64,000 nucleotides of DNA from assembly GCA_963696385.1 (NCBI GenBank), contig CAVOKF010000004.1:1-64000 (forward strand). Reading direction: 5' to 3'. Positions 9,207 through 52,416 of the stretch are shown here, in pieces. Under the pieces are notes generated by a model. It searched no databases and was not told where the DNA came from. It saw only the letters and a program-made list of their open reading frames with translations. This stretch comes from an uncultured delta proteobacterium (GTDB lineage Bacteria; Myxococcota_A; Polyangia; Polyangiales; Polyangiaceae). The number at the start of each line of letters is the position of its first letter. The first letter of the stretch is position 1. Both the position numbers and the translations under genes were made by a program.

Positions 9207-9209
9207 CCC

Positions 9210-32490: not shown

Positions 32491-33162
32491 TCAACGCGAC
32501 AAGCTGCCCTCCACTTCGTACTGACAGCCCGTGCGGTCGGTGAACGTCTCGGTGATCTCGAGTGACGCCCCCGAGGGCTGAACTTCGACCGATGTGAACT
32601 GCCGATCGAGGGGTTGACCCGTCGGTGCGCACGTTTGTGGGGCCGAGACGAGCCGCGCCACCCCGTCGCTCACGAACATGGCGAGCGAGCAGCCCAGGCC
32701 GGCGTCGAAGAGCAAGTCCGCGTCGCCGGCTTCGGTCGCGCCGGGCCCCAGTCGGAACGTCACCGTGACTCCGATCGGGTTCGCCTGAGCGGACTCGGTG
32801 GAGCACACGAAAGTCTCCGTTCCGGTCAGCGTCCACGTGCCGACCCAGAAGTCGGCCCCGCTCTCCGCCCCGCTTGCGTCCCGGACGGCGGGGACCGAGG
32901 CATCGTCGGTCGCGTCGACGGGTGGACCCTCGACGCCGGCGCCGCAGGTGCACGAAGCGTCTACGGCGCCATCCACACGGCATGCGGGCGCGCCATCCTT
33001 GGGTAAACAGAAGCACGGAGGCCCGGGGTCCCCCACGCAGTACACGACATCGGTCGTGTCCACCGCGGCATCCGCTTCGGTGGCGGGTTCGTGCCGCCGA
33101 GAACAGGCGAGGATCATCACGCATTCGATAGCGATCCCAATGAACCGTCGGGTGCGGGGCAT
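32491..33162 (-). CDS. Hypothetical Cys-rich lipoprotein
   Basis: ILAC lipobox-like motif; Cys cluster; beta-rich C-terminus. Confidence 0.5.
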   Translation of the reverse strand: MPRTRRFIGIAIECVMILACSRRHEPATEADAAVDTTDVVYCVGDPGPPCFCLPKDGAPACRVDGAVDASCTCGAGVEGPPVDATDDASVPAVRDASGAESGADFWVGTWTLTGTETFVCSTESAQANPIGVTVTFRLGPGATEAGDADLLFDAGLGCSLAMFVSDGVARLVSAPQTCAPTGQPLDRQFTSVEVQPSGASLEITETFTDRTGCQYEVEGSLSR

Positions 33163-33472
33163 GGTGCTCGATCTCCACGGCGTTCAGCCGATTTCCAAAT
33201 TCCGAAAACACGATTGCGACCGACCCGCGTCGATCGTGCCTATTCGCACGAGGCGTGATCGAAACGCCGGTCGTCCGTTCAAGAGCGCGCGAGGTCAGCG
33301 CGTCCCCGGAGGGCTTCGGCTCGAAAGCGCGTTAGGCGGACGGCGGTCCGCGAATCGGGGCTGGGGTCATGGGTTCGCCTTTAGCAAGCGGCGCGCCACC
33401 CGTGTTTGGCCTGCGCAGCGCGGCCAACTGCATGAAATCGTTGATTCGGAATCGACGCGAGTCCACGAAAAC

Positions 33473-33489
33473 TGGTCAATGCGTGACCA
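33473..33489. promoter_or_regulatory. Palindromic GGTCA-N5-TGACC box upstream of virD4
   Basis: TGGTCA-ATGCG-TGACCA preceded by GAAAAC, as at 28681. Confidence 0.35.
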
Positions 33490-33745
33490 TGTACGGTCGG
33501 CGATCGACCGGTTTCCTCTCTCGAATGCCACTTGCCACCGATCGCGCGGCAGCGACGAAATGAGCGCGCCACACCACGGTCGCCCGCGCCGCTCCCGCAC
33601 CGGATGCAAGCTAATGGGACGGATATCGCGTTTGACAAATGAGAATACCGGATTCAGATTGGCGTCGCTCCGAGCGTCGACCGCATTCCGGCGAGTCGGC
33701 GCTCCGACTCGGGGCGAGCGTTCTCGAGGATCGCGCGGAGGACCC

Positions 33746-35798
33746 ATGCGTGTGTTGGCGCTCTTGTCGCTCTTCGTGCTGTCTCTGGCCGGCCTCTGGG
33801 CCTCGACCGAGTACGTCGCCGCCAAGCTTCACGACCCACCCGAGATCGGGGTGCCCTGGGCCGTCGTCGGATCGTGGCCTCTCTACCCGCCCTGGGGGTG
33901 GCTCCTCTGGAGCCCGATCGCCGAGTCGCTTGCACCCACCGTCTTTCGCGACGCGAGCGGCATCACGACGATCGGGGCGATCGCCGGGTGCGCGGCTGCC
34001 GCCCTCGCAGCCGTATGCCGCAAGCCCACCGGCCCGAGTCGCTCGCACGGGAGTTCTCGCTGGGCCACGGCGACCGAGATGCGACGGGCGGGACTCTTGC
34101 GCGAGGCCGGCGTCGTCCTCGGCCAAACAAGTGACGCCGTCTTTCGACACACGGTCGACGCCGCCGGCCGAACACAGACCGTCTTTCGCAAAGCAGGCCG
34201 CCTCATCCGTCACGACGGCCCCGAGCACGTCTTCTGCTTCGCCCCCACCCGATCGGGTAAGGGTGTCGGCCTGGTCGTCCCAACGCTCCTGAGCTGGCCG
34301 CACTCGGTCCTCGTCTACGACATCAAGAAGGAAAACTGGGCGCTTACCGCGGGCTGGCGCCGCCAATTCAGCCGCGTCTGGCGCTTCGAGCCGACGGCCC
34401 TCGATTCGCTGCGCTTCAATCCGCTCCTGGAAATTCGGAAGGGTTGGAACGAGGTGCGCGACGCCCAGAACGTCGCCGATCTGCTCGTCGACCCCGCCGG
34501 AGAGAAAGACACCCGCGACCACTGGCAAACGACCGCCCACAGTCTGCTCACCGGCGCCATCGTGCATGTCCTCTACGCCGAGAGCGACAAGACGCTGTCC
34601 GGCGTCGCTCGATTCCTGTCCAACCCCGACGCCACCCAGACGCAAACGCTCGAGCGGATGCTCGAGACTCCGCACCTCGGCGACGCGCCCCATCCCGCCG
34701 TGGCCCAGGCTGCGCGCGAGATGCTGAGCAAGAGCGAGAACGAACTCTCGGGCGTCTTCTCGACCGCCCTGGCGTGTCTCGGCCTCTACCGCGATCCGGT
34801 CGTCGCCCGAAACACGTCGGCGAGCGACTTTCGCATCGCCGACGTCATGAACGCCGAGGCCCCGGTAAGCCTCTACCTCGTCGTGCCGCCGAGCGATTCT
34901 CGCGCGCACCCGCCCCATCATCCGCCTGATGCTCAACCAAATCGGCCGCCGCCTCACCGAGTCCCTGCAGGTCGGCAGCCGCACGGCGTACAAGCACCGG
35001 CTGCTTCTACTGCTCGACGAATTCCCGTCGCTCGGCCGGCTCGAGTTCTTCGAGAGCGGCCTGGCGTTCATGGCTGGCTACGGGCTCAAGGCGTTCCTCG
35101 TCGCGCAGTCGCTCCATCAGCTGGAGAAAGCCTACGGACCGAACCACTCGATTCTCGACAACTGTCACGTCCGCATCGCCTACGCCCCGAACGACGACAA
35201 GACGGCCAAGCGCGTCTCGGACCTGCTTGGCCAAGCCACGGAAAAGAAGACGCACCGAAGCTATTCCGGATCGGGGCTTGTCCTCACGCACCGCACCGAA
35301 AGCGAGCAGGAGTTCGGGCGGCCGTTGCTGACACCGGCGGAGGTCACCCAGCTGCCGCAAGACGACGGGATTCTGCTCGTGGGGGGCCTATGGCCCTATC
35401 GGGCCCGTAAGGTGCGCTACTTTCTCGACCCGCGATTCAAAGGTCGCGACGTCCTGCCGCCTCCCGATCGTCCCGAGGACCAGGCGCGAGAGCCACTGGG
35501 CCCAGTGACGAGCGACTGGGACGGGATCGGCGTCACGCTGCCGCCGGCTGAGCCTTCGAGTCCGGGTGTCTCGATTTTCGACACCGAAAGGACCGCGCGC
35601 CCGCCGGTCGCTCCGGAGAGCGATGAAGCCGCGGACCATCCGACAGAGGCCCGGACGCCGGGGCGTCCGGTGGCGGCCAGCGCCACGGCCGAGGGCGTTT
35701 CGGAGCGCTTCTTTGTCGCGCGAGGTCCGGCGACGCGCGAGGCCCACGAGGTCGAAGCCCTGCCCTTTCCCACCGCCAAGAAGGAGATGCCGGTATGA
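33746..35798 (+). CDS. traG: VirD4/TraG type IV coupling protein (frameshift at ~34897)
   Basis: HGSSRWA, FAPTRSGKGVGLVVP, YDIKKENW, LLLLDEFPSLG, ILDNCHVR, RPLLTPAEV. Confidence 0.92.
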
Positions 35799-36265
35799 CC
35801 AAGACCGTCCGTCGCGGCCGCGTACGGCTGCTGCCCTACGTCGATCCGGCCCTCGCTCAGCGCGTCGACCAATTCTGTGCGGCGACCGACGTGACGGTGA
35901 GTGCTGTCGTCGCGGCCGCTATCGGGCAGTACCTCGATGGTACGAGCGACGCGACGCTCGTCTTGCGACGCCTGGACCGGCTCGGCCGCGCCGTCGCTCG
36001 CAACCAACGAGACGTGGAGCTGTTGTCGGAAGCGTTCGCCGTGTTCGTACGTCTCTGGTTTGCGCATACGCCGGCGATCCCCGAAGCTGCGAAGGGCTCC
36101 GTACGCGCGAGCGCCGAGAGCCGGTACCGGCAATTCGTCGAGCACGTCGCCGAACAGTTCTCCGGCGGCCACCGCTTTCTCGACGACTTGCCGCACGAAG
36201 CGATCGGCGACGAAGGCGAGCTCGCCGCGGTGGCCGAATCCGCCGCTCTACAACCCCAAAAGTGA
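35795..36265 (+). CDS. CopG/ribbon-helix-helix protein of Tn4371-type ICEs
   Basis: SAVVAAAI..., RRLDRLGR, EAFAVFVRLWFAHTP, RYRQFVE; ATGA-coupled to traG. Confidence 0.8.
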   Translation: MTKTVRRGRVRLLPYVDPALAQRVDQFCAATDVTVSAVVAAAIGQYLDGTSDATLVLRRLDRLGRAVARNQRDVELLSEAFAVFVRLWFAHTPAIPEAAKGSVRASAESRYRQFVEHVAEQFSGGHRFLDDLPHEAIGDEGELAAVAESAALQPQK

Positions 36266-36432
36266 GCCGGATCGATCCCGACCGTGAGAAGGCCGACCCC
36301 CTTCCAGCGGGGCTGACTGGGGCGGTGGCCGCGTCACCCTCGGGACAGGACCGGGTCACCCGACGCGGATGGCTTTCGCCGTGAAATCCAGTCGCGTGAG
36401 CGTGGCACGAAAATGGGCGTGTTCGAGCGCCC

Positions 36433-38136
36433 GTGGCCGCTCTCGCGCCCGCCTACGTTCCCCGTCGCCCGACCGAAACGGTCCTGTACGGATTGGTGCG
36501 CGAGAATCTGGAATCGTTTCTCGCGTACGCGCGCGAGAACTACGAGGGAGGGCTACCCCGCTACGTGGAAGCGGAGCTGCGCGCGTACTTGAATTGCGGC
36601 GTATTTGCGTGCGGATTTACGCGCTGCCACTGCGACTCATGCGGCCACGACTTGCTTGTGGCTTTTTCGTGCAAGGGAAGATCTCTCTGCCCCAGCTGCT
36701 GCGGCAGGCGTATGGCCAACACGGCTGCCCACTTGGTCGATCGAGTCTTGCCCGACGTCCCTGTGCGGCAATACGTTCTGTCGCTCCCGTACGAGCTTCG
36801 CAAGCTTGCGGCGTTCAAGGCCGACGTTCTCACAGCCCTGGGCCGCATCTTCGTCGAGGCCATCTTTGCCCGCTACCGCGCTCGCGCCCAGCGCGAGGGC
36901 CTCGAGGATGCGCAGTGCGGAGCGGTAACCTTTGTTCAACGCTTCGGCAGTTTGAATCTCAACGTGCATTTTCACGTGTTGGTGCTCGATGGCGTCGTCA
37001 CCCGGGACCCGGACCGTCGTGTGCTCTTTCATCCGGCGGCCGCTCCGACGCCGGTCGAGCTCGAGGTGCTGGTGGACCGCGTGATGAACCGTAGCGTGGC
37101 GTGGCTGCGCCGCCACGGCCATGTGCAGGACACGCCGCTCGAAGAGCGCTCGAACGAGCCGCCGGCGCAGACTGCCCTCGACGCGTGCGCGGACATCGCC
37201 ATGGGCCGCGGCACAGTCGCAACCTTGTCGAACGACGACGACGGGTCGAAAGACGATGACCGCGAGGCGCGGCCCGACGGGCTCGTCGGCGCGGTCGAGC
37301 GAGACGGGTTTAATGTGCATGCCGGGGTCCGGATCGAAGCGGGCGACCATCTGGGTCGCGAACGACTGGCGCGCTACGGCGCGCGACCTCCGCTCTCGCT
37401 CGAGCGCCTTCGTAGGTTGCCCGGCGGGCGGGTGGCCTATCGACTCAAGTACGTCCGTCGCGGCCGAGGCAAGTACAGAATCATGACTGGCCTGGAGTTC
37501 ATGGCCCGCTTGAGCGCGATCATTGCGCCGCCTCGGTATCCGTTGGTGCGCTACAGCGGAGTGCTCGGGCCACACTCGAGCTGGCGACGCGACGTGGTGC
37601 CGAAGCCGCGCGAGACGGCTCCCGCCTGCCACCGCGCGCCTACCCCACCGCTGAGCCCGGCCAAGCCGGTCACCGGCGCAATGACGCATCCGGGCTCGGC
37701 GCTTCCCGGGGCGGCGGCGCCGACAGCGGGCAAAGTCGAGAGTGCTCCGGCGCCGGCCGCCAGTTCCTCGACGAAGACGGGTCTGTCCGCGCTCCCCATC
37801 TTCGCGCATCGGGGCGAGGTCATCCCGCTCACGCCGAATGTGCTTGCTGTCAGCCACTGGGAACGGCTGCTCGGCGGCGCCATCTACGCGGCCTCGCCGC
37901 GCGTGGACTGGCCCACGCTCTTGAAACGAACGTTTGACGTGGACGTTCTGCAATGTCCGAAGTGCCACGGCCGACTGCGGGTGCTCGCCGTGATCACCGA
38001 GCGCGAGCCGGTGCGCCAGGTCCTCGCCCATCTCGGCCTGCCGACCGAGGCGCCGCCCGTCGCCCGGGCGCGCGACCCGACTGACGACGCGCAAGACGCC
38101 GAGCCGTCGGATCAACTCGAGCTGCAGCTCGCGTGA
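36433..38136 (+). CDS. IS91-family (HUH, rolling-circle) transposase with N-terminal zinc-binding domain
   Basis: CG...CxxC...AFSCKGRSLCPSC, RQYVLSLP, NLNVHFHVL (HUH), ERLARYGARP, RYSGVL, CPKC. Confidence 0.92.
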   Translation: MAALAPAYVPRRPTETVLYGLVRENLESFLAYARENYEGGLPRYVEAELRAYLNCGVFACGFTRCHCDSCGHDLLVAFSCKGRSLCPSCCGRRMANTAAHLVDRVLPDVPVRQYVLSLPYELRKLAAFKADVLTALGRIFVEAIFARYRARAQREGLEDAQCGAVTFVQRFGSLNLNVHFHVLVLDGVVTRDPDRRVLFHPAAAPTPVELEVLVDRVMNRSVAWLRRHGHVQDTPLEERSNEPPAQTALDACADIAMGRGTVATLSNDDDGSKDDDREARPDGLVGAVERDGFNVHAGVRIEAGDHLGRERLARYGARPPLSLERLRRLPGGRVAYRLKYVRRGRGKYRIMTGLEFMARLSAIIAPPRYPLVRYSGVLGPHSSWRRDVVPKPRETAPACHRAPTPPLSPAKPVTGAMTHPGSALPGAAAPTAGKVESAPAPAASSSTKTGLSALPIFAHRGEVIPLTPNVLAVSHWERLLGGAIYAASPRVDWPTLLKRTFDVDVLQCPKCHGRLRVLAVITEREPVRQVLAHLGLPTEAPPVARARDPTDDAQDAEPSDQLELQLA

Positions 38137-38202
38137 ACGACCGGCCCCGAGAGCGGCGCGCCGATGCGGCGCCGCGCGGGCGACGTGCGCTTTGAATCTG
38201 TT

Positions 38203-38312
38203 CAAATCGGTTCGCCGATTCAGCGATAACGAACGCCCCTAAGACGCGATATGTTTCCGCGCCCGCTTCCGCGGCTCTTCGTCGACCGACGCACTTTGGG
38301 CTTACTACTCGC
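38203..38312 (+). repeat. ~110-bp dif-like cassette-boundary element, copy A1
   Basis: CAAATCGGTTCGCCGATT...AACGCCCCTAA-GACGCG-ATATGTTTCCG...CTACTCGC. Confidence 0.9.
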
Positions 38313-39798
38313 TGTGACGAGCGGCGAATCCGTGAACGTGAACAGCGTGGACGAGGTGCCCGATTCGGCCTGGTTCACCAACCGACTCGGTGTCCGCCCG
38401 ATGAGCCTCGAGGAGCTGCGGCTGAACGAGTGCAAGAAGGAAGTGCTCCTCGACCCGGATCACACCCCGGACGGTGGGTGGCTCATCGACCAGGGCAAGA
38501 CCAGCGGGTCGACGCCGGGCTTTCGCATGACCGTGCCCGGCAAGGGCAAGTTCCTGGTCAAGGTCGAGGCCACCGGGCTGCCCGAGCGCCAAGTGGCGGC
38601 CACGGTGATCGGCGAGGCCGTCTACTATGCCGTCGGCTACAACGCGACGTGCGAGCAGGCACTGTGGGTCCGACCGTCGATCTTCACCCTGAAACCGGGG
38701 TTGAAGGCCGCACACGGCAACTTCGGGGATTACTACGACTTCGACAAGAAGGCGCTCGACGATCTGTTCGCCAAGTCCAACAAGCACCGCGGGCTGCTTC
38801 GCATCAGCGCCTCCGCGTGGGTGCCGGGATATGTCCTGCAGCAGTTTCGCTACGAGGGGGTGCGAGGCGACGATCCCAACGACGTCATTGCGCATCAGGA
38901 TCGTCGCGAGCTTCGCGCCGCGCGACTGCTCACGGCGTGGATCGATCACTTCGATGCGCGCGAAGGCAATTCGCTCGACACCTGGTTCACCGAAGTGAAA
39001 GGCGGTCCGCCCGACGCGTCGCCCGGTCACGTCGTCCACCTTCAGATGGGCACGAGCGCCGCTCTTGGATCGGTGTGGGACTGGGACCCCATCTCACGAC
39101 GGCTCGGCTACGCCTACGTCGTCGATTGGGGGGACATCGCGGTGGATTTCTTCACGCTGGGGGCCACCACGCGCGTCTGGGAACAGATCCAGAAGGTCCC
39201 GGGCCATGAGATGTTCGGCTACTTCAACGTCAAAGACTTCGATCCCGAGCGGTGGAAAAACGAATACCCGAATCCGGCGTTCTCGCGGATGACCGAACGC
39301 GACGGCGCGTGGATGGCGCGCATCCTGGCGCGGTTCACGCCGCCCATGGTCCGAACCTTGGTCGAGATGGCGAAGCTCGACGACCCAGCCAACACCGATT
39401 ATTTGCAGAGCGTCCTCGACGGCCGGTTGGCCAAGATTGTCGATCGCTACCTCACGCGGGTGTCGCCAATCGCCCAGGTGCGGGTCGATGGGCCGAGCCG
39501 GCTCTGTGGAGTCGACCTCGCGGAGTGGCGCGGCTTGCGCGATCCGTGGGCGTTTCGCTACGAGGCGCGGCTCCTTTCCGGACCGTGGTTGAACGTGGAA
39601 AGGCAACCGGGGGCACAGATCTGCGTGACGCTGCCCCACGTGGCTGCGGACGGCGGTGTCCCGGACGACGCGCCCGCGCGCTACGTTCGCGTGCGCATCC
39701 AAGACGGGGTGGCCACCGGACCGCTCGTGGCGCATCTGTACGATTTGGGGCCGGTGCGGGGCTACCGCCTGGCCGGCCTCGAGCGGCCCGATCGGTGA
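38313..39798 (+). pseudogene. 5'-truncated paralog of the 40931-42670 kinase-like exported protein
   Basis: Begins near NVNSVDEVPDSAWF directly after A1; lacks the ~85-aa N-terminus of the paralog; an ATG inside A1 (38251) is in frame. Confidence 0.75.
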
Positions 39799-39897
39799 CA
39801 TCCCGGCACCCCCCGCGCGAGGCGATCCGATTTTGCCGGTGGGTGCGGGCGCCAAGAGCCGGCCCGCGAGGCGCGCGGGTGGGGGTGTTGGCCGCTC

Positions 39898-40767
39898 TCA
39901 GAATCGTCCCTGCAGCGTCAGCGAACCTCCTCCGGGCGCTGGCGCGACGCCCACCCATACGGCCGGAGCCTCCGCTTTGTGCCGATGAAGGTGCGGCACG
40001 AGAATCCCCACGGCCGATCCTGCTAACGATCCCGCAATGACGTCGCTCGGGAAGTGCTCGCCCGCGCGGACGCGCTCGTAGCTGACGAACGCGGTGAGCG
40101 CCGTGGCGATGCCGAGCGTGATCCACGGGCGAGGCGAGCGGGGCGATCGCACGAAGGCGAGGTACGTCGCCGTCGCGCCGATGGCCGAGACGCCTGCGGC
40201 GTGCCCGGAGAAGAAGGAAAGGCCGAGATCGGTGGAGTTGCAGCTGGCCGGCAGCGTGGTCGCGCCGTTCATCTCGCAGTTCTTGTAGTCGATGGGACGG
40301 GGCCGGCGAACGGCGATCTTGGTGATGTCCGTGAGTGTGAGCGCGAGCGATCCGGACTCCGCGTACATGAACGCGTCGACCAGCAATGCGTCGGTGCCGT
40401 CGCGAAAGCCCGACAGAACGGGATCGACCACCGCGAACCCGATGGCCGTATACAGGCCGATGTTCGAGTACGTCGCCGCGTGCGGATCGATCGTCTGCGT
40501 CACCGCGATTCGGTCGAAAAACAGAAGTTGGCTCACCGAGGCCGTCGGGACTGGGGGTTTGATCTCGCCGGTCCCGAGAACCAGCCCGAGCAAGCCCGCG
40601 AACCCGAAGCCCGTCACCGTCATCACGCCGTCGGAGACCGGGTCGAGGGAGAAGTGCTGTCCTTCCTCGAGGGGCGGGGAATCGGCCCGTGCGACGGACG
40701 CCGACAAGAGGACGGCTCCCAGAAAGCCCAGAGCCACCTGGCGTGACGATGTCGCAAACGTCCTCAT
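39898..40767 (-). CDS. PAP2 family phosphatase
   Basis: KIAVRRPRP, SFFSGH, ERVRAGEHFPSDV. Confidence 0.9.
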   Translation of the reverse strand: MRTFATSSRQVALGFLGAVLLSASVARADSPPLEEGQHFSLDPVSDGVMTVTGFGFAGLLGLVLGTGEIKPPVPTASVSQLLFFDRIAVTQTIDPHAATYSNIGLYTAIGFAVVDPVLSGFRDGTDALLVDAFMYAESGSLALTLTDITKIAVRRPRPIDYKNCEMNGATTLPASCNSTDLGLSFFSGHAAGVSAIGATATYLAFVRSPRSPRPWITLGIATALTAFVSYERVRAGEHFPSDVIAGSLAGSAVGILVPHLHRHKAEAPAVWVGVAPAPGGGSLTLQGRF

Positions 40768-40930
40768 GGTGCTTGAGACGCTGGCGGCACCGGATTGTGA
40801 CGTCTCCGAAAGCCAATCGTGTGCCCACCCGATGGGCACGACGATCGCCTGCACCGCGTGACGCGCCGGCCGCACCGCGCCTCGCGCCGGACGCGAGCGG
40901 CCGCGTCCGATCTCGGCGAGGCGGGACACC

Positions 40931-42670
40931 TCAGGGCTCCGGCCGCTCCACCCCCGCGAGAAAGTACCCGCGTTTTGGGCCGAGATCGTACAAGGCCGCA
41001 ATGAGCGGCGCCTTCGCGACACCGTCGTCGAGGATCACTCGAACATACCGCGCGGGGGACGCGTCGGGCGGACCCCCGTCTCCGGCCACGTGCGGCAGAC
41101 GGACGCAGATTTCGCCGCCGCCATGCAACTCGACCGGCAGCAGGGCCCCGTTCGGCGCGCGGGCGGTGTAACGGAAGCGCGTGACATCGCACACGGCGCG
41201 CGCCTCGGCCAGGTCGACTCCGCAGAGCCGGTCGAGGCCTTCGACGCGCAGCTCGCCAATCGGCGAAAGCCGTGTCAGATACCGTTCGAGGATCCGTTCG
41301 AGCCGTCCTTCGAGCACGCGCACGAGATGCTGCGTGTTTCTCGGATCCGTGAAACGTGCCATCCCGGCAAACGCGCAAACCGCCTCGGGCGTGAAGCGCG
41401 CCAGGATACGAGCCATCCATGCCCCGTCGCGCTCGGTCATGCGGCTGAATGCCGGGTTCGGATACTGCATCCTCCATTGGTCGGGCACGAAGCTTCGGAC
41501 GTCGAAATTCCGGAACAGCTCGAATCCGGGATCGCCGAGCGGTCGATCCCAAGGGCGTGCCGGAATTCCGAGCGCCAAGAAGTCGGCTGCCATGTCGCCC
41601 CAGTCGACGATATACGCGTAGCCGAGCCGTTCGGTCACCGGTACGTGCCCGTAGTCGGGGCCGAGCGCATCGCTCCAGTCCAAATAGTAATGAACGACGT
41701 GACCCGGCGATCCGTCCGAAGCGACGTTCGGGTCGGCAAACCAAGAGTCCATGCTGTTGGCGTCCCGAGAGTCCCAATGATCGATCCACGCGGCGAGCAA
41801 GCGCGTGGCCCGCAGTTCCCTTCGATTCTCGTGGGCGATCACGTCGTTCGGGTCGTCCGGTCTCGTCCCGTCGTAATGAAAGGGGCCCAGAAGGTGCCCC
41901 GGAATCCATGCCGAGGCGCTCATCCTCACGAGCCCGCCACGCCGCGCGCAAGCCGCCAGGACCTGGTCGAGCGCTTTCGCGTCGAAGTCCTTTTCGTCTT
42001 CCAAAGTGCTGTGCCGGAAATGGAGGCCGGGGCTGAGCTTGAGCGCCGACGGCTTGAAGTACACGACTTGCTCGCAGCTCGCGTTGAAGCCGGCGGCGTC
42101 GTAAATCGCGGCGCCCACCACGGTCGCCGCGGTCGCAAGCTCGGGCTGCGCGGTCCCGTCGGCCTTGAACAGGTACTTGCCTTTGCCGGGGATGTTCACC
42201 CGAAACCCCGGAGTCGCGCCGTCCATTTTGCCACGGTCGATGACCCAGAGGCCGTCGGGCGGGTCCTCGGCGATCAGCAAGGACCGGTCGCACGCACCGA
42301 TCGGCACATCGCCCGGGCCCGGAAGGTGGCCGCCGCGCCGATTCGTGAACCACGCCGAATCGGGCACTTCGTCGACGCTGTTGACGTTCGTGGCCTCTCT
42401 CGCGACGGCCAGGGCGAGCGCGTCGGACATGGGGCGGAGCAGGACGTGATCCATGGCCGTCCAGATCTCGGGCACATCGATCGGCACCGGGGCACAAGAG
42501 ACGTGCCGTGGATCGCGCGCCGTGGGCTGGAGGCGGCAGGGCAGCGTTACGGACTGGAGATCCGAGTCTCTGTCCATCGGGGGGCGCAGCGCAAAGCGTC
42601 GCTCGGTCGGCATGCACGCCGACAGAGCGAGCGCCACGCACGCGAAGCGGACTTCATTCACGTTCGACAT
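40931..42670 (-). CDS. Exported lipoprotein, possible atypical kinase-like fold
   Basis: Lipobox LSAC; GATPGF...YLFKAD...PELATAA; HENRRELR...HWDSRDANSMD. Confidence 0.6.
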   Translation of the reverse strand: MSNVNEVRFACVALALSACMPTERRFALRPPMDRDSDLQSVTLPCRLQPTARDPRHVSCAPVPIDVPEIWTAMDHVLLRPMSDALALAVAREATNVNSVDEVPDSAWFTNRRGGHLPGPGDVPIGACDRSLLIAEDPPDGLWVIDRGKMDGATPGFRVNIPGKGKYLFKADGTAQPELATAATVVGAAIYDAAGFNASCEQVVYFKPSALKLSPGLHFRHSTLEDEKDFDAKALDQVLAACARRGGLVRMSASAWIPGHLLGPFHYDGTRPDDPNDVIAHENRRELRATRLLAAWIDHWDSRDANSMDSWFADPNVASDGSPGHVVHYYLDWSDALGPDYGHVPVTERLGYAYIVDWGDMAADFLALGIPARPWDRPLGDPGFELFRNFDVRSFVPDQWRMQYPNPAFSRMTERDGAWMARILARFTPEAVCAFAGMARFTDPRNTQHLVRVLEGRLERILERYLTRLSPIGELRVEGLDRLCGVDLAEARAVCDVTRFRYTARAPNGALLPVELHGGGEICVRLPHVAGDGGPPDASPARYVRVILDDGVAKAPLIAALYDLGPKRGYFLAGVERPEP

Positions 42671-42713
42671 GATGCCCGAAGGGGCCGCTTCGTGACGATG
42701 CGGTAGCGACGCT

Positions 42714-42823
42714 CAAATCGGTTCGCCGATTCAGCGATAACGAACGCCCCTAAGACGCGATATGTTTCCGCGCCCGCTTCCGCGGCTCTTCGTCGACCGA
42801 CGCACTTTGGGCTTACTACTCGC
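42714..42823 (+). repeat. ~110-bp dif-like element, copy A2 (identical to A1)
   Basis: Direct sequence comparison. Confidence 0.9.
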
Positions 42824-43231
42824 TCCCGACGATGACGAGACCGACCGCTGCGACGAGTCCGACCACGACCATGATCGGGTTGTCCAGTGCGGCGCCACAC
42901 CCTCCCAGCATCACGATCCCGCCGAAGAAATAGCAGCCGTTGCGGATCAGCTTCCGTTGCTCCGTGTTCATCGGCCCTCCGAAACGATGCCAACGCTTAT
43001 CGTCGGCCTTGTCAACGGCGGCAGATGCGGGCGCGGGGACCCGAGGTTGGCACCCGCGTGCCCCGTCCACTCGCACGCGCGGCACGCCAGCGAGCAACTT
43101 GCGAACGACAACAGCCGGTCCACTTCGGCAGAGTACGCGTTGCCGCGATTATCGCGCGCGTCGTCCGCCACGCGCCCTCCGCCAGTCATCGCCGTTGACG
43201 TCGCCCGGGCGATCGGCCGACCATTGGGGCG

Positions 43232-44464
43232 ATGGGGGATGAGGAGAGGCGAACGGTTTGGATCCTTGGCGCGGGCTTCAGTCGATCGCTCGGCGGCCCG
43301 CTATTGCCCGACCTGCTTTCATCGGCGACGAATAATTTCGTTTCCTCTCTCTATCATAAAAACAAATTCATTGGGGGCCCCCCCGAGGAGCCCGATGACG
43401 TGTACCGCCGCGCGGCCCTCGCGGTGCGCCGCTTGTACGATAAATACGGGGACACAGCTGACCCCGGAATCCGCTTATGGGAGAATGCGGAAGAGTTTTT
43501 AGACCAGCTAGACGCCGCGGCCGAAAACGAGAGCGCTGCCAGTCGGATTTTCCGACCGATGACCTCCGAGCTCAATAATGCCCCCTGGATTTCCGGAGTG
43601 GAGACCCCGGACCTGCGCGACGCGGCGCGACGGCTCGTTGCCGCAGCGTGTTGCGCGTTCCTGCACGGTGCGAATACGAATGAAGAACGCTGGCAGCCGT
43701 ACCAGGCGTGGGCCGCCGACCTAACGTCGTCGGACACGGTCGTGACGTTCAATTACGACCGGGTGTTGGAAACCCTCGGAGGGTTTGACGTCGTGGTGCC
43801 TGCGCCGCCGGAGGTACTCACCTCGCAGGTCGTCCCGCTCGTGCCGCCGCTAGGCGCTAAGCCGAAAGTCTTCAAGCTACACGGCAGCGTCGATTGGCGC
43901 CGTGAACTAGAGAAGCCGGTAAGATACTTGCTAGCGTCGCCCGAATACGCTCTTGAATGCGATGGCGTAAACATCGGAATCGCTACACCGGGCCCAACTA
44001 AGCGTCTAGCGACTCAGGAATTGAGCCGATTGTGGACCGATGCGTGTGAGCATATTCAGCGAGCCGAGGTAATTGTCTTCGTTGGGTACCGCTTCCCGCG
44101 AACCGATGCGGAAGCACGCGGAACGCTTTTGAAGGCGATCAGGGAAAACAAGTCCCCTCATCTCGAGTTGCACATCGTGCTCGGTCCGGATCGGCGAATC
44201 CCGGACGTCGTCCGGCTTCAACAGCTGCTCCGCTACAGAATGGCGAGCGCGGGCCGGAAGGGGCAACGAGTTTTGCCCCCAAGCGCCCAGAGGATGACTG
44301 CCGCGAAGCCCGCAAACGAGACGCGAAATGATTTTCGGCTAATGACCCACGCCCTCTATGCGGAGGACTTCTTCACCGTGTGGGATCGCGACGTCTTGTG
44401 GCCCCCATCAGAGGGGGTAAGCTCAAACGATCGTGTGACCATCGAGCCGTTGCCGCCCGACTGA
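43232..44464 (+). CDS. SIR2-like domain protein (putative NADase defence effector)
   Basis: WILGAGFS, VTFNYD, FKLHGSVDW, IVFVGYRF. Confidence 0.85.
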   Translation: MGDEERRTVWILGAGFSRSLGGPLLPDLLSSATNNFVSSLYHKNKFIGGPPEEPDDVYRRAALAVRRLYDKYGDTADPGIRLWENAEEFLDQLDAAAENESAASRIFRPMTSELNNAPWISGVETPDLRDAARRLVAAACCAFLHGANTNEERWQPYQAWAADLTSSDTVVTFNYDRVLETLGGFDVVVPAPPEVLTSQVVPLVPPLGAKPKVFKLHGSVDWRRELEKPVRYLLASPEYALECDGVNIGIATPGPTKRLATQELSRLWTDACEHIQRAEVIVFVGYRFPRTDAEARGTLLKAIRENKSPHLELHIVLGPDRRIPDVVRLQQLLRYRMASAGRKGQRVLPPSAQRMTAAKPANETRNDFRLMTHALYAEDFFTVWDRDVLWPPSEGVSSNDRVTIEPLPPD

Positions 44465-44477
44465 CGGTGTCCGGGCG

Positions 44478-44566
44478 GCGAGTAGGCGGCGCAAAGCTTG
44501 TCGGCCGACGAAGAGACGCGGAAACCGCCGCGGTCACATAAAAGGCCTTTGGGGCGCTCGTTGTCA
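44478..44566 (-). repeat. dif-like element, inverted partial copy B1
   Basis: Reverse complement TGACAACGAGCGCCCCAAA-GGCCTT-TTATGTGACCG...CCTACTCGC. Confidence 0.85.
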
Positions 44567-44876
44567 TTGAAAGCGCCGTCCCAATTGAGCGCACGGAAAT
44601 CGTCCCCTTTGGCAACGACATCCTGGCCGGCACGCCCCGGGCGATGCCCTACAGCGGGGTAAGCCGGATGAAGTTTCAGGCGAATGCCGTGGCTGGCCGA
44701 AAGGAGAAGTCTGTCTTGAAGCCCAACTGCACGTTGAGTCTCGTCCCCTCGCCCGAGGGCGTTCTCGCTCGCTGCTCGGAGAAAAGCACCTCGTCGCACT
44801 TGACGGTCACCGATTTGGCTCGTTCTTCGGTGTTGTTGGATGGCGAAGCGCAAGCAAATTCAATCGACCCGGGACT

Positions 44877-46058
44877 TCACTGGCATTCAGCTGAGTTCGG
44901 AGGATTTGCGCCGGTCGCGCTGTAGGACGCACATATGGCCGCTGAGAACGCGCCCGTCACATGGTCAACTTTGACGGTGTTGATTATGTTCTGCGCATTC
45001 CAGGGGCTTAAATTCAGATCGAAGGTCCCTATGATTTCCGATGCCGTTACAGTTGAGACTGTGACGGTACCGCTTACGGACTGCTCGCATGCCGTTGGAT
45101 TGTCGCTTTGGTCGTAGGCGGCACCGTAAAACGCCCCCGCTCCTATCGTCGCCCCCGCTGAGGTTAGGACGTCGAACGTGCCTGGCGTCAACGATGAGTT
45201 TGTTACAATGTCGAGGTACAAGACAGTTTGGTTGGGGGAGGGCCCGCTGTCGTCTTCCGTCCAGGCGTTTCCAGGTCCGCCATCTGGGTTTAATGCGCAT
45301 AAGTCGGCGAGGTTTGCGATGGATACGTTGGAGAGAACGATGCTCGTCACGTTGGTATCGGGAGCTAACCCGGGATTCCCCACGGGGACATTGCCGGCGA
45401 AGGCACTCTGGATGATCAACTCCTGCCCGCCGATCGTGCCAGTAGCGCTGTTCGCGGAGGCTTCGCTCGATCCGTCGGATGCATCGGCGGCATCCGGTCC
45501 TGCGTCACAATTCGGCTCCAGAATGTACGAACATTCGCCGCTGCTCGGAATGCACGAGCCCGGCGTCAATTCGCAAGTCGTTGGCGGAGTCACGCACGCG
45601 GTGGATCCCCCTGTCGCTGTCGTGCAGCCCCCGCACGGATCCTTTACTGTGCAGGTAGTCGCCTCACCATCCGCGTCGCTGGCGTCCGGGGTGCCATCGA
45701 TTACATCGGGCTCGATTACGTCCAATACAGTCGCATCGCGATTGGCGTCTGCTTCCCCGTCTGTGTCCCCATCTGCTTCGCCGTCCGTCGTTGCATCCTT
45801 GCCCCCGTCCAATTCACTCGACAACGAGCTTGAACTGGTCGTTGAGCTTGAACTCGACGACGAGCTTGAAGGTTCAGGGGGCGGCGGAGGCGAAGGGCTT
45901 CCGCAAGCAGCTAGGACCTCAAAATGTGTGGTCACGACCGCGAGTGCGGCGATTCGCCACGGTTCCAGCCTCACGAAATGCCTCCCGCTGGAGCTATCGA
46001 CGCGGAAAACCGACATTGGCGCCAAGATCGCACAAAGTGGACCAGGCTCAGGTGGCAC
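44877..46058 (-). CDS. Hypothetical lipoprotein, Ser/Asp-rich linker and Cys-rich region
   Basis: LAAC lipobox, poly-Ser, DAG repeats; visibly more AT-rich than the flanks. Confidence 0.55.
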   Translation of the reverse strand: MPPEPGPLCAILAPMSVFRVDSSSGRHFVRLEPWRIAALAVVTTHFEVLAACGSPSPPPPPEPSSSSSSSSSTTSSSSLSSELDGGKDATTDGEADGDTDGEADANRDATVLDVIEPDVIDGTPDASDADGEATTCTVKDPCGGCTTATGGSTACVTPPTTCELTPGSCIPSSGECSYILEPNCDAGPDAADASDGSSEASANSATGTIGGQELIIQSAFAGNVPVGNPGLAPDTNVTSIVLSNVSIANLADLCALNPDGGPGNAWTEDDSGPSPNQTVLYLDIVTNSSLTPGTFDVLTSAGATIGAGAFYGAAYDQSDNPTACEQSVSGTVTVSTVTASEIIGTFDLNLSPWNAQNIINTVKVDHVTGAFSAAICASYSATGANPPNSAECQ

Positions 46059-46442
46059 GCTTGCAACAAAATAAGTTCAACAATATTGGAAAAATCGTGC
46101 GAGCTCAGACTTCAGACGGTCCGAGAGCGGACTTGGCGGAGCCTGAATGTGGCACACAAAGCTACATGTGGCGCTGGGCGCTACCTTGTGGCTCCGTGCA
46201 CCACACGTGTGCGGGGGGGCAGTGTCCGCTACCTGGCTTTGATCGGCCACATTCCCCGCTGTACTTCGGGCATGTATCCGTTTCGTACGGCTCCCGAGCT
46301 CTCCCAGGCCATCCCCGGCCCCCCTGTCCTGGCTCCTTGGGCTGTCCGCCGGCTTCAGGCAGCGGCGCAATAGTCATGATGAAGGCCGCCGAGCACGGGG
46401 ATGGCCTCGACCGGGCCAGCATACTTGGCCAAACGGGACTCT

Positions 46443-46563
46443 CAAATCGGTTCGCCGATTCAGCGATAACGAACGCCCCTAAGACGCGATTAAGACGCGA
46501 TATGTTTCCGCGGTGGCTTCCGCGTCTCTTCGTCGACCGACGTGCTTTGGGCTTACTACTCGC
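46443..46563 (+). repeat. dif-like element, copy A3 with an 11-bp internal duplication
   Basis: TAAGACGCGAT is tandemly duplicated in the core. Confidence 0.9.
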
Positions 46564-46640
46564 CAGCGAGCTGCCGTGCTGCTCGTCGAGCGGCTTGCAA
46601 ACCTGCTTGCCACGTCCCCGGACCTGCCGGAGCTACGACC

Positions 46641-47420
46641 GTGACGGTCTTGCGAAACGGCAAAGCGCCGCGCTGGAGCGAGCACGAGGCGTCGAGTGAG
46701 CACTTCGTCGGCGGCATCTCGCCCCTCTGGATGTTCGACTACCAGCTTCAGGGGCTCTTCTCAGTCGTGGAACTCGCGCGAGCCAGGAGTCGAGAGGAGC
46801 CCCACCTCTACGGCGACGTTCTGCGGCGCGCCGCGGAAGTGGCGCTCATCGGCGCGCTCGGCTTCTTCGAGGCGTTTTGCAAACACCAGTTTGCGGCGCT
46901 TTTGACGCTGCATGCCCCTCTGCTCGTCGACTTCGCCAACCGGCGTCAGGAGGCGAGCCTCCGGCTCTCGGCACTCGCTTCAGCCGCCGGAGAACTCGAC
47001 GTCAAGATCGGCTTCATCGTCGCCGAGTCGTACGACTTCGGATCGGCCAAGCAAATCAATGGACTCTTCCGCGATCTCCTCGAGTGCTCGCCGTTGCCGA
47101 AAGATGAGGGGGACGAGCTCGACGCCATCCTTCGCAAGCGCCACCTCATCGTGCACCACGGCGGTATTGTTACAACTGAATCGGCTCGGGCAAAGGCACC
47201 GGTCCTTCCGTCTGGCCAGGCGTTTCGAGACGTCGTCGGGGTCGAGCCCGACGAGTACCACGACATCGCGGACTTCCTGCGGCTCTCGGCCGTCAAGGTA
47301 GCCGTCTGCACGGTGCAAGCCCTCAAGCGTCGCACGCGCGACCTATCTGATCTTGCCGTCGACCGACAGCAAGACGTGGAGCTTCTGCTCAGGGCCGTGT
47401 GGCATCAGCTCGACGCGTGA
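46641..47420 (+). CDS. HEPN-domain protein (putative RNase)
   Basis: FFEAFCK helix, FGSAKQINGLF, RHLIVH (RxxxxH); start approximate. Confidence 0.65.
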   Translation: MTVLRNGKAPRWSEHEASSEHFVGGISPLWMFDYQLQGLFSVVELARARSREEPHLYGDVLRRAAEVALIGALGFFEAFCKHQFAALLTLHAPLLVDFANRRQEASLRLSALASAAGELDVKIGFIVAESYDFGSAKQINGLFRDLLECSPLPKDEGDELDAILRKRHLIVHHGGIVTTESARAKAPVLPSGQAFRDVVGVEPDEYHDIADFLRLSAVKVAVCTVQALKRRTRDLSDLAVDRQQDVELLLRAVWHQLDA

Positions 47421-47449
47421 ACGAGCCCCCTCGACCTTTGGGCCCTGCT

Positions 47450-47683
47450 CTACTTGCGTCGCTTTCGTCCAGGGCCTGCAGGCCATGAAACCTGCTTGGA
47501 GCGTTCGAGCCATCCCTCGGTGACGGCCTCGCGCACCTTCACCCGCAGAAGCTCCTCGGCGGCCTCGGTGCGGTTCTTTCCGAACAGGCCGGTCTGCACC
47601 AGTGCGTCGAGCGCCGAGAGCACCTCGGGCGTCGTCGACAGGTGCAGTTTCTTGGTCCCGACCGAGTTGGGCCCGCGTGCCAT
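47450..47683 (-). CDS. Small ribbon-helix-helix-like regulator
   Basis: LHLSTTPEVLSALDALVQTGLFGKNRTEAAEELLR. Confidence 0.6.
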   Translation of the reverse strand: MARGPNSVGTKKLHLSTTPEVLSALDALVQTGLFGKNRTEAAEELLRVKVREAVTEGWLERSKQVSWPAGPGRKRRK

Positions 47684-47715
47684 GATCCAAGTAGATCCTG
47701 ATCTAGGATCTTGAT

Positions 47716-48163
47716 ATGCTCAAGCCCGTGAGCGCCGATTTGGCCGGCCAGAGGGTCGGATCCCTCGACGATGCGCGGACTGCGTTGGTGCTGCCGCCAC
47801 GTCCCGAACCGCGATCTGCGCGCAGAACGCTGCGCGTCGGCAGCCGCACGCTCACCGTCACGCCGGTCTTCGACACGTACTGGCGCTTCGCCTGCCAGCG
47901 GCAGGAGGTCTTCCACCGGCGAGCCGCGGGCGACCCCCCCGCCGTGGACGGACGATCCCATTCTTGGCGGGCACCGTTTCACGAATGCCTACCGCGCTTC
48001 GGATCGGGTGAGCCAGTTCCTCATCCGCCACGTGCTCTACGCCGGCAGTCAGGACGAAGAGGAGGTTTTCTTCCGTTGCCTGCTCTTCAAGATTTTTAAC
48101 CGGATCGATACGTGGGAGCACCTTAGGCTTCACGTCGGCGAGGTGCGCTGGAACAGCTACTCT
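47716..48163 (+). pseudogene. 3'-truncated DNA base-hypermodification (aGPT-Pplase1/5hmdU-kinase-associated-like) gene
   Basis: FDTYWRFACQRQEVF...PWTDDPIL...FTNAYRASDRVSQFLI...LLFKIFNRIDTW; cut at element A4; frameshift in a C-run at ~47935. Confidence 0.7.
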
Positions 48164-48210
48164 CAAATCGGTTCGCCGCTCGGTGACAACGGAAGCCCCT
48201 AAGACGCGAT
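48164..48210 (+). repeat. dif-like element, left-half copy A4, interrupted by IS4
   Basis: CAAATCGGTTCGCC...GAAGCCCCTAA-GACGCG-AT, then IS sequence. Confidence 0.85.
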
Positions 48211-48591
48211 CATAGGTAGGATCTTTATTTCCCGAGTGATCTCGATCACTTACGTGCATAGTGCACGAATTGGGTAGTCAAAGGCATCGGGGATTCTCTA
48301 GACGCTGTTGTGAGACAACGCGAAAGGAGACCCCCGATGCACGGATCAAACAGTACACGCGCCGGAGTCGGCGTGTATGCGAAACGGCTTACGGAAGTAC
48401 TCGGCGAGGAGCAGGTGACCGCGATCGCGAGACGTAGCGGCTGGCTACGGCGAGTGCGCAAGGTGATGCCGCTGGCGATGGTCGTGGCGGTGCTGTCGAC
48501 GCTCGGGTCGGGCCACGCCAAGTGGTTGGCCGATATTCTGCGGACGTTCCGGAAATTCGCGGGCCTTTCGCTGCGATATAAGCCCTTTCAC
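48211..48591 (+). mobile_element. IS4-family left end and transposase 5' fragment
   Basis: CATAG start; ORF from 48337 with IARRSGWLRRVRK...LADILRTF...YKPFH; cut at A5. Confidence 0.65.
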
Positions 48592-48702
48592 CAAATCGGT
48601 TCGCCGATTCAGCGATAACGAACGCCCCTAAGACGCGATATGTTTCCGCGGGGTCGTCCGCGGCTCTTCGTCGACCGACGCACTTTTGGGCTTACTACTC
48701 GC
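48592..48702 (+). repeat. dif-like element, copy A5
   Basis: Near-identical to A1. Confidence 0.9.
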
Positions 48703-49034
48703 CGAACAGAATCCACGGGCGGTCGAGACTATGCTTCGTGAGCAGCGCGACCACGTCGGTGCATTTGCTTCAGCTTCAGCGCAGCCATGATCGCCTGATA
48801 CCACTCGCTGCCGTACTCGATGCCCGTGTTGCCTTTCTTATCCGAAGACCGGAACGACTTCAGATTGCCGCCGCTTGCGTCGGTGAGCAGGTTGCTGAAC
48901 GCCTCGGCCAGCTTCGCGTCGCGGCTGTCGTGGCTGATGAACACAAGCGGCTTGGAGGACTGAACGAGCGACGATTCGCCGTTCGCCGCCTCGTTTGTCT
49001 TCCCGTTTCCCGCTTCCTGCTTCCGCTTCGCCAT
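48703..49034 (-). pseudogene. 3'-truncated TIR-domain gene
   Basis: VFISHDSRD, FRSSD...GIEYGSEW, DVVALLTKHSLDRPWILF cut at A5 just before the catalytic Glu; one frameshift. Confidence 0.75.
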
Positions 49035-49151
49035 GCCCGCCGCCCCCGGGTGCCGTGATCCCGCACGATCGCACAACCGGACGCATCGGGTAAGCCCTGG
49101 CCAAGATCGGTTCTCGGCATACCCGTCAAGTGTTCAGTATGCTCCCGCCAA

Positions 49152-49345
49152 TGCCCGACAACACCCGTCCGCCGCGCAACCTCCACATCGACGACCAGCC
49201 GAACCTCGGCACCCGCGCGCTGATGACGGCCGTCGACGAGCTGGCCAAGGCGCACCGGCTTGCCGGAGCCCGCGTCGCCTACAAGCGCAACGCCAAGGGC
49301 GAGCACGTCGTCGCGGTCATCTTCACCGGCTTCGAGCGCACGTAG
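49152..49345 (+). CDS. Small hypothetical protein
   Basis: Compact ORF with host-like codon usage; no motif recognised. Confidence 0.35.
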
Positions 49346-49498
49346 CGGCCCGAATCCGTATTCCGGTGCGCCGGAGGCGAAACCCGGTTTCGCCATGCGG
49401 CCCGCATCGGCGCGCAGAGCCCTGCAGCCAAGATAGGCGATCGCTCCGATCGGAACCCGGGTTCCGGTCCCGGTTGGTCCGCCGACGGCCGCTCCGAC

Positions 49499-49577
49499 TG
49501 ACAACGAGCGCCCCAAAGGCCTTTTATGTGACCGCGGCGGTTTCCGCGTCTCTTCGTCGGCCGACAAGCTTTGCGCC
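49499..49577 (+). repeat. dif-like element, partial copy B2, cut by IS66
   Basis: Identical to B1 from TGACAAC to TTTGCGCC. Confidence 0.85.
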
Positions 49578-49638
49578 GTAACCGTCCGGCCGGGCCCGCA
49601 CTTGATTTAGGGGCAGAAAGCGCGGTGCGATCGGGGGC

Positions 49639-49959
49639 ATGGGACGCGAGCGTCGGTCGCGAGTCTGGTGGTCAAGCCGAGTGGCGCGTTGGCGGCGCAG
49701 CGGGCTTACGGCGCGGCAATTCGCCGAGAGCGAAGGGCTTTCGGTGTTCTCGCTTCGGTGGTGGTCGAGCCAGTTGGCTCGTGATAACCGTGCGGAGCAC
49801 GGTGCGTCGGCGATCGAGCCGATCGAGATCACCGTCGAGGGGCGTCAGGCCGGCCGCGAACTGGTCGAAGTCGTGGTCGGCGCGGCGACGATCCGCTGCG
49901 AGCGGGGGACGGACGTCGGATACATTGCGGCGCTGGTTCGTGCGATCGCGGGTGCATGA
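49639..49959 (+). CDS. tnpA: IS66 accessory protein TnpA
   Basis: WRRSGLTARQFAESEGLS...LRWW HTH. Confidence 0.8.
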   Translation: MGRERRSRVWWSSRVARWRRSGLTARQFAESEGLSVFSLRWWSSQLARDNRAEHGASAIEPIEITVEGRQAGRELVEVVVGAATIRCERGTDVGYIAALVRAIAGA

Positions 49960-50321: not shown

Positions 50322-50428
50322 GCCCCGTCGCGGCCCTGTGTGTCCATTGGACACTTTGTCGCTGAAATCGTCGTCGGCCCCCACGCTAAGCCTTTTAATC
50401 TGCGCGGCGATGGTGCACGAAAAGGATC

Positions 50429-52033: not shown

Positions 52034-52416
52034 ACCACTGGGGCGCAGCGCAACTCCCGCAATCCCCGAACGCGTCGCGCGTCGTCACGTCGATGCAGAG
52101 TGTCGCCCGAGTCCGCGACGCGACCCCAGCACGACGTGCCGCTATCCATACGAGCGCAGCGCCTCGCCTCTGCCCCCCTGAACCACTGGCCTGAAGTCGC
52201 CAAGCATGGTCGCGCTCTGTTGCGGCCGCGGCAACGACGTCAACGCGACGATGCTCTTGGCGTGCTCGCCAACAATCGCGACGAGTACTGGGACAAGAAG
52301 CTCGCCGCCGATACTTGGCAGGGGCCTCATCGCGGGAAAGGCCCGCCCCCTGAACCATTCTTGGACTCAGGTCAACAGCGGGGCGCGCCGGACGCTTACG
52401 TGGAAAGGGTGCAGTT

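Follow-up and report, generated by a model that had tools for sequence, protein, structure and literature searches.

The locus at positions 38232-38259 of the window, by which we mean the whole 64-kb stretch of DNA analysed here, raises the question of whether a short sequence built like a XerC/XerD recombination site, repeated between blocks of accessory genes, works as such a site. The analysed stretch comprises the initial 64 kb of contig C4 in a Polyangiaceae genome of 6.94 Mb (eight contigs, 66.5% G+C). A preliminary description had given this locus the 11-6-11 geometry of dif, and the letters read as described: directly in the window and on the plus strand, 38232-38259 is AACGCCCCTAA-GACGCG-ATATGTTTCCG, with a left arm of 11, a centre of 6 and a right arm of 11 nt. 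With up to two mismatches allowed, a degenerate core pattern matches seven times in the window, where 0.09 matches are expected, and none of 100 shuffles reaches seven. The A, B and C cores quoted earlier account for six of these, with matches at 38235, 42746 and 48624 (A), at 44535 on the minus strand and 49510 (B), and at 52939 (C). The match at 39731, which has two mismatches, is not a repeat copy. The preliminary description overlooked that the core belongs to a longer unit, one whose ends are sharp like those of a transposon and which is tied to an IS91-family transposase. The 28-bp core is the middle of this unit, a repeat of ~110 nt that reads CAAATCGG...CTACTCGC (38203-38312).

The copy at 38203-38312 (A1, plus strand) lies directly 3' of an IS91-like element. 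Copy A2 (42713-42824, plus strand, 112 nt, core 42743-42770) is identical to A1, and copy B1 (44478-44589, core 44531-44558, centre GGCCTT) is on the minus strand. The remaining copies are on the plus strand: A3 (46442-46564), in which TAAGACGCGAT is tandemly duplicated in the core, A4 (48591-48702, core 48621-48648), B2 (49494-49580, core 49507-49534), whose left part is diverged and which has an IS66-family element directly 3', and C (52905-53016, core 52936-52963, centre CGGGTT). A left half-repeat at 48160-48210 (plus strand) stops at the core, where an IS4-like insertion lies, and joins a C-like left arm to an A spacer. Such a combination had been ascribed to A4; it exists, but in this half copy and not in the full copy at 48591. 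The repeat matches in the window are seven on the plus strand and two on the minus strand, with up to eight copies within 15 kb. We also observed two direct TTCCGCG heptamers ~12 nt apart with a hypervariable 5-nt patch between them (38254-38282, and the same columns in other copies); both heptamers are changed together from G to T in the copy at C4:1140190, and the two could represent paired binding sites for protein next to the core.

Within the window is a conjugative element. It has VirB4-, VirB6-, VirB8-, TrbI- and VirB11-type genes, and the repeats fill the 18 kb between its coupling-protein gene (32.8-35.8 kb) and its relaxase gene (53.9-55.5 kb). The blocks between the repeats are 0.9-4.5 kb in size, gene fragments and insertion sequences (IS) included. 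They hold an IS91-family transposase, a truncated gene copy with a PAP2 gene, a SIR2-like gene, a kinase-helical-domain fragment, an IS4-like fragment, an IS66-family element and a NUDIX gene. Three genes with Phage_integrase domains lie on the minus strand at 7350-8870, 9688-11226 and 11132-12517. Several features of the surroundings deserve record in their own right. The coupling-protein gene runs in two overlapping frames, 32798-35410 covering profile positions 1-277 and 34929-35798 covering positions 284-454, and to judge by the reading frames it is likely split by a frameshift. The relaxase/DUF3363 gene is also split, over two minus-strand ORFs (54350-55525 and 53874-54431), and two tandem units of ~570 bp that are 88% identical (55800-56951) lie between the relaxase gene and ParA-like genes. 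Two Toprim/DUF3991 genes, 1738-2838 and 15641-17305 (minus strand), accompany the three tyrosine-recombinase genes at 7350-12517, and more than one element may be nested in the window.

A profile search of the host genome with nhmmer gave 99 matches to the repeat, copies or fragments, of which 45 are near full length, and these are concentrated in few regions, mostly close to contig ends. Over the 45 full copies the centre has an entropy of 1.13 bits per column, compared with 0.46 for the left arm, 0.51 for the right arm and 0.70 for the rest of the element, so that in this larger alignment the centre is indeed more variable than the arms, as expected of a tyrosine-recombinase site. The centre is not the sole variable patch of the repeat, which has three or four of them, including the 5 nt between the TTCCGCG heptamers, columns 15-20 and columns 100-106. 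The spacing is also largely fixed, and neither of these two checks, on the variability of the centre and on the spacing, refutes the preliminary description. Among 66 matches that span the site, 48 have strict arms with exactly 6 nt between them, two have 5 nt and one has 8 nt, and the other 15 fail the strict arm pattern, as tandem-duplicated cores, one deletion, degenerate copies and three copies of a variant-arm class that keep the 6-nt spacing nonetheless. The repeat cores therefore have the two 11-bp arms around a 6-bp (6-8 bp) centre of a Xer site. The three spacers first described were an undercount: there are at least ten centre variants (GACGCG in 26 copies, GGCCTT in eight, GGCGTT in four, and others).

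The full-length repeat was found in none of the other 120 family genomes searched, four of which gave only matches of 24-37 nt, and the comparative support is accordingly thin. A pattern scan of metagenomes for the repeat gave no matches, and no match to it was found in a plasmid collection. Contigs of four public soil and peat runs, compared with 35500-54500, were too short for block-level variants and break at the repeats, and the joints between different repeat copies in these contigs resemble other repeat variants, not excision products; bins that lacked cover in two of the runs were set aside.

If the core is a Xer site, it should resemble the dif of its own host. A fuzzy search with a generic Xer-site pattern, with up to four mismatches allowed, gave four matches, one of which, C3:50569-50596 on the minus strand, is a candidate dif that reads AAGGCCCCTAA-GGAACA-TTATGTGAACT. 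It is single-copy and not a copy of the repeat, and its position is close to the maximum of cumulative GC skew on its contig, which falls at ~60 kb in 20-kb bins of a weak skew. In a genome of the same genus the flanks of the site are syntenic and 67-69% identical, and inside the intergenic gap only the dif site aligns. With at most one mismatch, the pattern ATAA-N6-TTATGTGAACT has matches in 51 of the 61 family genomes (39 of the 43 high-quality ones), usually one per genome, and a reversed control of the same pattern has no match in any of the 61. An alignment of 31 such dif sites has the consensus AGTTCGCATAA-GATACA-TTATGTAAACT, with which the dif predictions for Myxococcus and Anaeromyxobacter agree in the portion of the published account available (PMC2731167). 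On these sequence grounds we take C3:50569-50596 to be the host dif. We note that the host genus departs from 29 other family genomes in its XerC-side dif arm, which is CCCCTAA or CCGATAA in the host genus (C3:50569-50596 and G060:C67:6226-6250) and a near-invariant CGCATAA in those 29.

When the arms of the host dif were compared at each position along either strand of repeats A, B and C, the register with the most matches was that of the preliminary description, with 16, 17 and 17 of 22 arm positions identical in the same 11-6-11 frame (16 of 22 in A1) and none of 2000 shuffles doing as well. The comparison with the host dif that the preliminary description had proposed is thus favourable for these three classes, whose arms resemble those of their own host's dif. 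The D class is different, with 12 of 22 positions identical, a score that 529 of 2000 shuffles reach and that is not significant. Across the genome, sites with at least 16 of 22 identical positions number 32 inside repeats and nine elsewhere, plus dif itself. The left arm GCCCC(T/A)AA is common to the repeats and the host dif and occurs in none of the other 30 dif sites read, which at the same positions have CGCATAA (29 family sites) or CCGATAA (the same-genus site), so that the mimicry tracks a variant seen in the dif of this host and not in the sites of 30 relatives. The right arm matches less well: of its 11 positions, nine agree in B, eight in C and six in A, whose right arm misses four positions that are near-invariant in family dif sites. 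The core would have a good XerC-side arm and a partly degenerate XerD-side arm. The host also encodes candidates for both recombinases, a XerD-like gene at C3:185808-186665 that scores 313.9 bits on the XerD model (curated cut-off 329.6) and a XerC-like gene at C3:320339-321220 that scores 309.5 bits on the XerC model (curated cut-off 335.15), both scores just under the curated family cut-offs.

Judged from the letters, then, the dif geometry and mimicry are real and statistically solid, and it is the function that we infer. We put at about one half the probability that the core is a working XerC/XerD-type site that mimics the host dif and sits at the junctions between accessory-gene blocks. 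The geometry, the mimicry, the copy number, the position at junctions and the associations with IS elements are observed; binding by XerC and XerD and strand exchange at the cores are what they would imply. The host XerCD would pair copies with compatible centres and exchange the DNA on either side, and blocks would be joined, swapped or inverted between co-resident mobile elements, as has been proposed for the dif modules of Acinetobacter. An IS91-family transposase, or a similar one-ended process, would make new copies and new junctions between unit and cargo, and Xer would then act on those copies. Against this reading stand the A-class right arm with its 6 of 11 matches and the poor match of the D class, the two Xer-like proteins that fall below their curated cut-offs, a mosaicism that is not concentrated at the core, and sharp outer ends beside unrelated DNA that recombination at the core alone would not be expected to produce. 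The predominance of one orientation in the window and the lack of a full-length repeat in the 120 other family genomes also count against it.

The outer ends call for an explanation of their own. They are sharp, the flanks have no target duplication, and none of the 45 full copies has its two flanks side by side elsewhere as an empty site. Many single flanks are copies of other loci, with homology that begins at the repeat edge. Directly 3' of A1 lies a cargo block (38314-40825, plus strand) that is 92.6% identical to the chromosomal C7:715376-712864; homology to C7:715376 starts within two bases of the annotated end of A1, at a point within a gene whose copy here therefore lacks its 5' part. 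Upstream of seven donor loci, the native DNA was not duplicated. The base before the left end of the repeat is C or T in the 25 left junctions read, and donor DNA was cut after C or T in all but one of the junction cases read; this pyrimidine preference is the only one at the junctions, which have no conserved target or termination tetranucleotide. No block was found bounded core-to-core in two contexts. In the block 3' of A1, the truncated gene at 38334-39791 has an inverted paralogue, 65% identical, at 40938-42389, and a chromosomal relative at C4:737761-739221.

Several simpler identities for the repeat were rejected. A simple MITE insertion is ruled out by the absence of empty-site or filled duplicates (0 of 45) and of duplicated upstream DNA at the seven donor loci, and a classical DDE-type MITE by ends, CAAATCGG... 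and ...CTACTCGC, that are not inverted copies and by flanks without duplication. An Rfam scan of 36000-54000 for structured RNA gave no matches, and no promoter-like or terminator-like site was found in 38100-38420. Neither an attC-like nor a HUH hairpin is indicated, since the single-stranded DNA of three classes, on both strands, folds no better than shuffles (z -0.05 to -1.2). Nor is the core a shared coding N-terminus: its ATG is in frame with the ORF after A1, and the ORF after A3 is in another frame.

The neighbour of A1 is an IS91-family element (36321-38202, plus strand; tnpA ORF 36433-38136), whose right end ...GGATCTGTT abuts the repeat and whose left boundary, drawn from a four-copy alignment, is approximate. 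Its transposase has the Pfam domains Y2_Tnp (2.4e-23) and Zn_Tnp_IS91 (3.2e-17). Among the IS91-like copies found in the genome by tblastn, all seven 3' ends that reach the end of the element have the repeat directly after them in the same orientation, and the repeat also adjoins a 92%-identical transposase in another Polyangiaceae assembly. Two IS91-like copies lie between inverted repeats. The sharp ends, the lack of target duplication and the constant association with the IS91 family suggest a transposase-type origin of new copies, and it is from these features that we infer a role for the transposase in making them.

The same features would also fit an alternative that we hold to be doubtful, though it fares best among the rivals. 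In it, the IS91-family element ends downstream, on its oriIS side, with the repeat, solo copies are mini right ends left by premature termination of rolling-circle transposition and mobilised in trans, and the dif likeness is a relic or side feature with no role for Xer. The repeat is placed as such an end should be, distal to a Y2 HUH transposase gene at all seven 3' ends and without target duplication, and the adjoining transposase in the other assembly, the absence of empty sites, the sharp ends with a pyrimidine at the cut, and the captured gene fragments that adjoin the repeat all agree with it. The right end of the repeat may resemble the left end of IS91, a likeness on which none of this reasoning draws. 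However, the repeat has neither sequence in common with the ends of the autonomous element nor a conserved target or termination tetranucleotide, and in local alignment neither end of the IS91-like element is significantly similar to it (z at most 2.7, with at least 4 of 300 shuffles as good). The matches in plasmids that were sought for canonical IS91 ends are ISCR-like neighbours. IS91-like copies that share 98-99% identity in their last 200 bases stand next to repeats of different subtypes, with ~8 differences in the first 37 nt, which fits insertion beside pre-existing repeats better than a single co-evolving unit. The absence of folding potential is a further point against an IS91 end, and the host-specific mimicry of dif (p below 1/2000) would be left without explanation. 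There is precedent for the process itself: in the parts available of the respective reports, IS801 experimentally yields right-end mini elements of 229-679 nt by premature termination and mobilises adjacent DNA (PMC3189936), and the ends of IS91 are described as palindrome-bearing oriIS and terIS (PMC13181058).

A more elaborate proposal would keep both enzymes. An IS91-family rolling-circle transposase would circularise the repeat with adjacent DNA by one-ended transposition, and the host XerCD would insert the circles at other dif-mimic copies, giving two-enzyme gene capture in myxobacterial conjugative elements, that is, integron-like arrays without an integron integrase in which the centre classes would serve as compatibility groups. 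We consider it unlikely in this full form.

Three types of IS insert in or beside the repeat. The IS4-like element is 1476 bp long, encodes a DDE transposase of ~437 aa, has the ends CATAGGTAGG and CCAACTTATG, makes a 10-bp duplication and is present in 11 full-length copies (among them C8:878418-879892 and C7:1397665-1399140). Six of the 11 lie in a repeat core, where the duplication, AAGACGCGAT or AACGGGTTAT, consists of the centre with 2 flanking nt to either side. The remaining five are at unrelated sites, four of which are T|A-N8-T|A sites, a kind of target for which the element has a preference. Many of the "broken" repeat copies are IS4-like insertions into the core. Truncated IS4-like copies, broken at internal points, adjoin the left end of the repeat in three cases and its right end in one. 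In the window only the first ~380 bp of an IS4-like element are present (48211-48590, plus strand), the element being truncated where the left end of A4 begins. One IS4-like copy has flank duplications that do not match, which points to homologous exchange between IS copies. The IS66-family element (~2.8 kb, 49579-52399, plus strand, transposase ORF 50429-52033) has two more copies in the genome that are 99.7-99.8% identical. Separately, six repeat copies carry the 10-nt IS4-like target twice in tandem with one or two extra bases (T, A or AT) between, at 46472-46504 of the window and at C2:103660, C2:74131, C7:1383861, C6:60151 and C4:81443, and from their sequence these look like independent excision footprints of the IS4-like element.

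A few chimeras are of the kind expected if arms are exchanged at the core. One copy has a B left side and B centre joined to a C right side, and another has an A-like left side and centre joined to a non-A right arm. In five half-copies an unrelated common left sequence is joined at the boundary of spacer and right arm with no IS present, and three left halves end 0-3 nt past the centre GGGATC with a different sequence after each. The suggestion of the preliminary description that arms are exchanged at the core fits these few chimeras and the eight half-copies that break at the spacer/right-arm boundary, but mosaicism is found all along the repeat. Correlations of distances between blocks are 0.71 for spacer and right arm, 0.44 for left arm and spacer, 0.36 for La and Lb, 0.26 for Lb and left arm and 0.22 for Ra and Rb, and the intervals of the breakpoint scan are wide, compatible with the core but not specific to it. 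With linkage low throughout and intervals this wide, the patchwork is not specific to the core, and homologous exchange among the ~100 copies explains much of the mosaicism. Other composite loci were seen as well. At five loci (C6:58460-58619, C7:94374-94722, C6:48184-48440, C2:119223-119450 and C2:75327-75493) the right arm and right part of the repeat are preceded by a second left module, ~93 nt long, that bears no relation to the usual one; these may represent a hybrid site or a separate repeat subfamily. A sequence of ~200 bp abuts repeat position 16 in six loci (C4:1139852-1140051 and five others), and five other repeat copies stop at position 101; these junctions may be further insertion points or further elements.

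Such mosaicism along the whole repeat, the three IS types in or beside it and the IS4-like copy with non-matching flanks would suit a passive dispersed repeat without a part of its own in recombination, whether a regulatory element or a decayed mobile one, that attracts IS elements, with the patchwork arising by homologous recombination between copies. We find this improbable, as it does not account for arms that are strongly conserved relative to the centre, for the retention of the 6-nt spacing or for the mimicry of dif; it is likewise at odds with the lack of promoter-like or terminator-like signals and of an Rfam family, and with a start codon in the core that shares the frame of the ORF after it in A1 and does not in A3. 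Least probable of all is that the core belongs to one or more tyrosine recombinases of the conjugative element itself, in the manner of an integron or of GIsul2, rather than to the host XerCD, since arms that match the host dif, including its host-specific left arm, point to dif-binding proteins, no integrase gene adjoins the array as IntI adjoins attI, and the repeat has no attC-like fold, even though the same element carries three Phage_integrase-domain genes, the repeats are concentrated in elements of this kind, and the tyrosine integrase of a GI mobilises an ISCR unit through att sites overlapping the supposed end of that unit (PMC9376610, from the available portion of that report).

Taken as a Xer-type site, the core can be compared with several known systems. 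The sites of Acinetobacter dif modules alternate in orientation, in contrast to the mostly co-oriented sites of the window (seven plus, two minus). As in the pdif sites and dif modules of Acinetobacter, there are many 28-bp sites of XerC-6-XerD form on mobile DNA that resemble the host dif, the sites may bound discrete blocks of accessory genes that recur in varied contexts, and IS elements target the sites. Unlike in Acinetobacter, the site here lies within a conserved, sharp-ended unit of ~110 bp that is present in ~99 copies in one genome and is tied to an IS91-family transposase, and the setting is the conjugative-element and IS-rich regions of a Polyangiaceae host rather than small plasmids. 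Dif modules are described in PMC6449649 and PMC13141974, and the targeting of dif and pdif sites by IS elements in Acinetobacter in PMC10132070, each as far as the text of these sources was available. Elements that exploit Xer, such as the CTX, VGJ and TLC phages and the gonococcal island, integrate at the chromosomal dif, whereas the dif region of this host is uninterrupted and the mimics are arrayed in mobile elements. The dif mimic of those elements has one good arm, one degenerate arm and a centre unlike dif, and the repeat core is similarly a mobile dif mimic with one arm good, the other degenerate and a non-dif centre. TLC is treated as a Xer-exploiting integrative element in the accessible section of PMC9226527.

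Plasmid Xer sites such as cer and psi also differ, in that the repeat is present in up to eight copies in 15 kb and ~99 per genome, with conserved sequence on both sides of the core. Sites of the cer and psi kind are found once per plasmid and act in multimer resolution. What they share with the repeat is a Xer core with ~100-200 bp of conserved flanking sequence, accessory sequences being reported for plasmid Xer sites in the part available of a preprint (bioRxiv 10.64898/2026.02.23.706985). Unlike the attC arrays of integrons, the repeats have no adjacent IntI/attI platform that we could see (the integrase genes are 26 kb away) and no attC-like fold, and they delimit blocks of 0.9-4.5 kb that include gene fragments and IS elements. 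The attC repeats of Vibrio cholerae are homogeneous, ~110-120 nt long and mostly co-oriented, and separate unrelated genes, a layout that the array in the window resembles. With the ends of IS91 and ISCR elements and the mini right ends of IS801, the repeat shares a position directly after a Y2 HUH transposase gene, the lack of target duplication, solo short copies and adjacent captured DNA; it differs from them in its lack of detectable resemblance to either end of the IS91-like element, in having no conserved target tetranucleotide and in carrying a dif mimic. In the portions seen of the literature on dif-like or Xer repeats in Myxococc- taxa, we found no such repeat described. The closest systems in function are the dif modules of Acinetobacter and next the Xer-exploiting integrative elements, and the closest in anatomy of the unit are IS91-family ends and the mini fragments of IS801.

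If XerCD acts on these sites, gene shuffling by dif modules would extend beyond the plasmids of Acinetobacter to soil Myxococcota, where it would use an extended site at a far greater scale, with ~99 sites in a single genome. Through its link with the IS91 family, the repeat offers a testable answer to the question of how a recombination site first becomes attached to new cargo, a question that dif modules and integron cassettes both pose. The repeat family also provides a natural series of centre variants with which to test how the 6-bp centre governs the choice of partner in Xer recombination.
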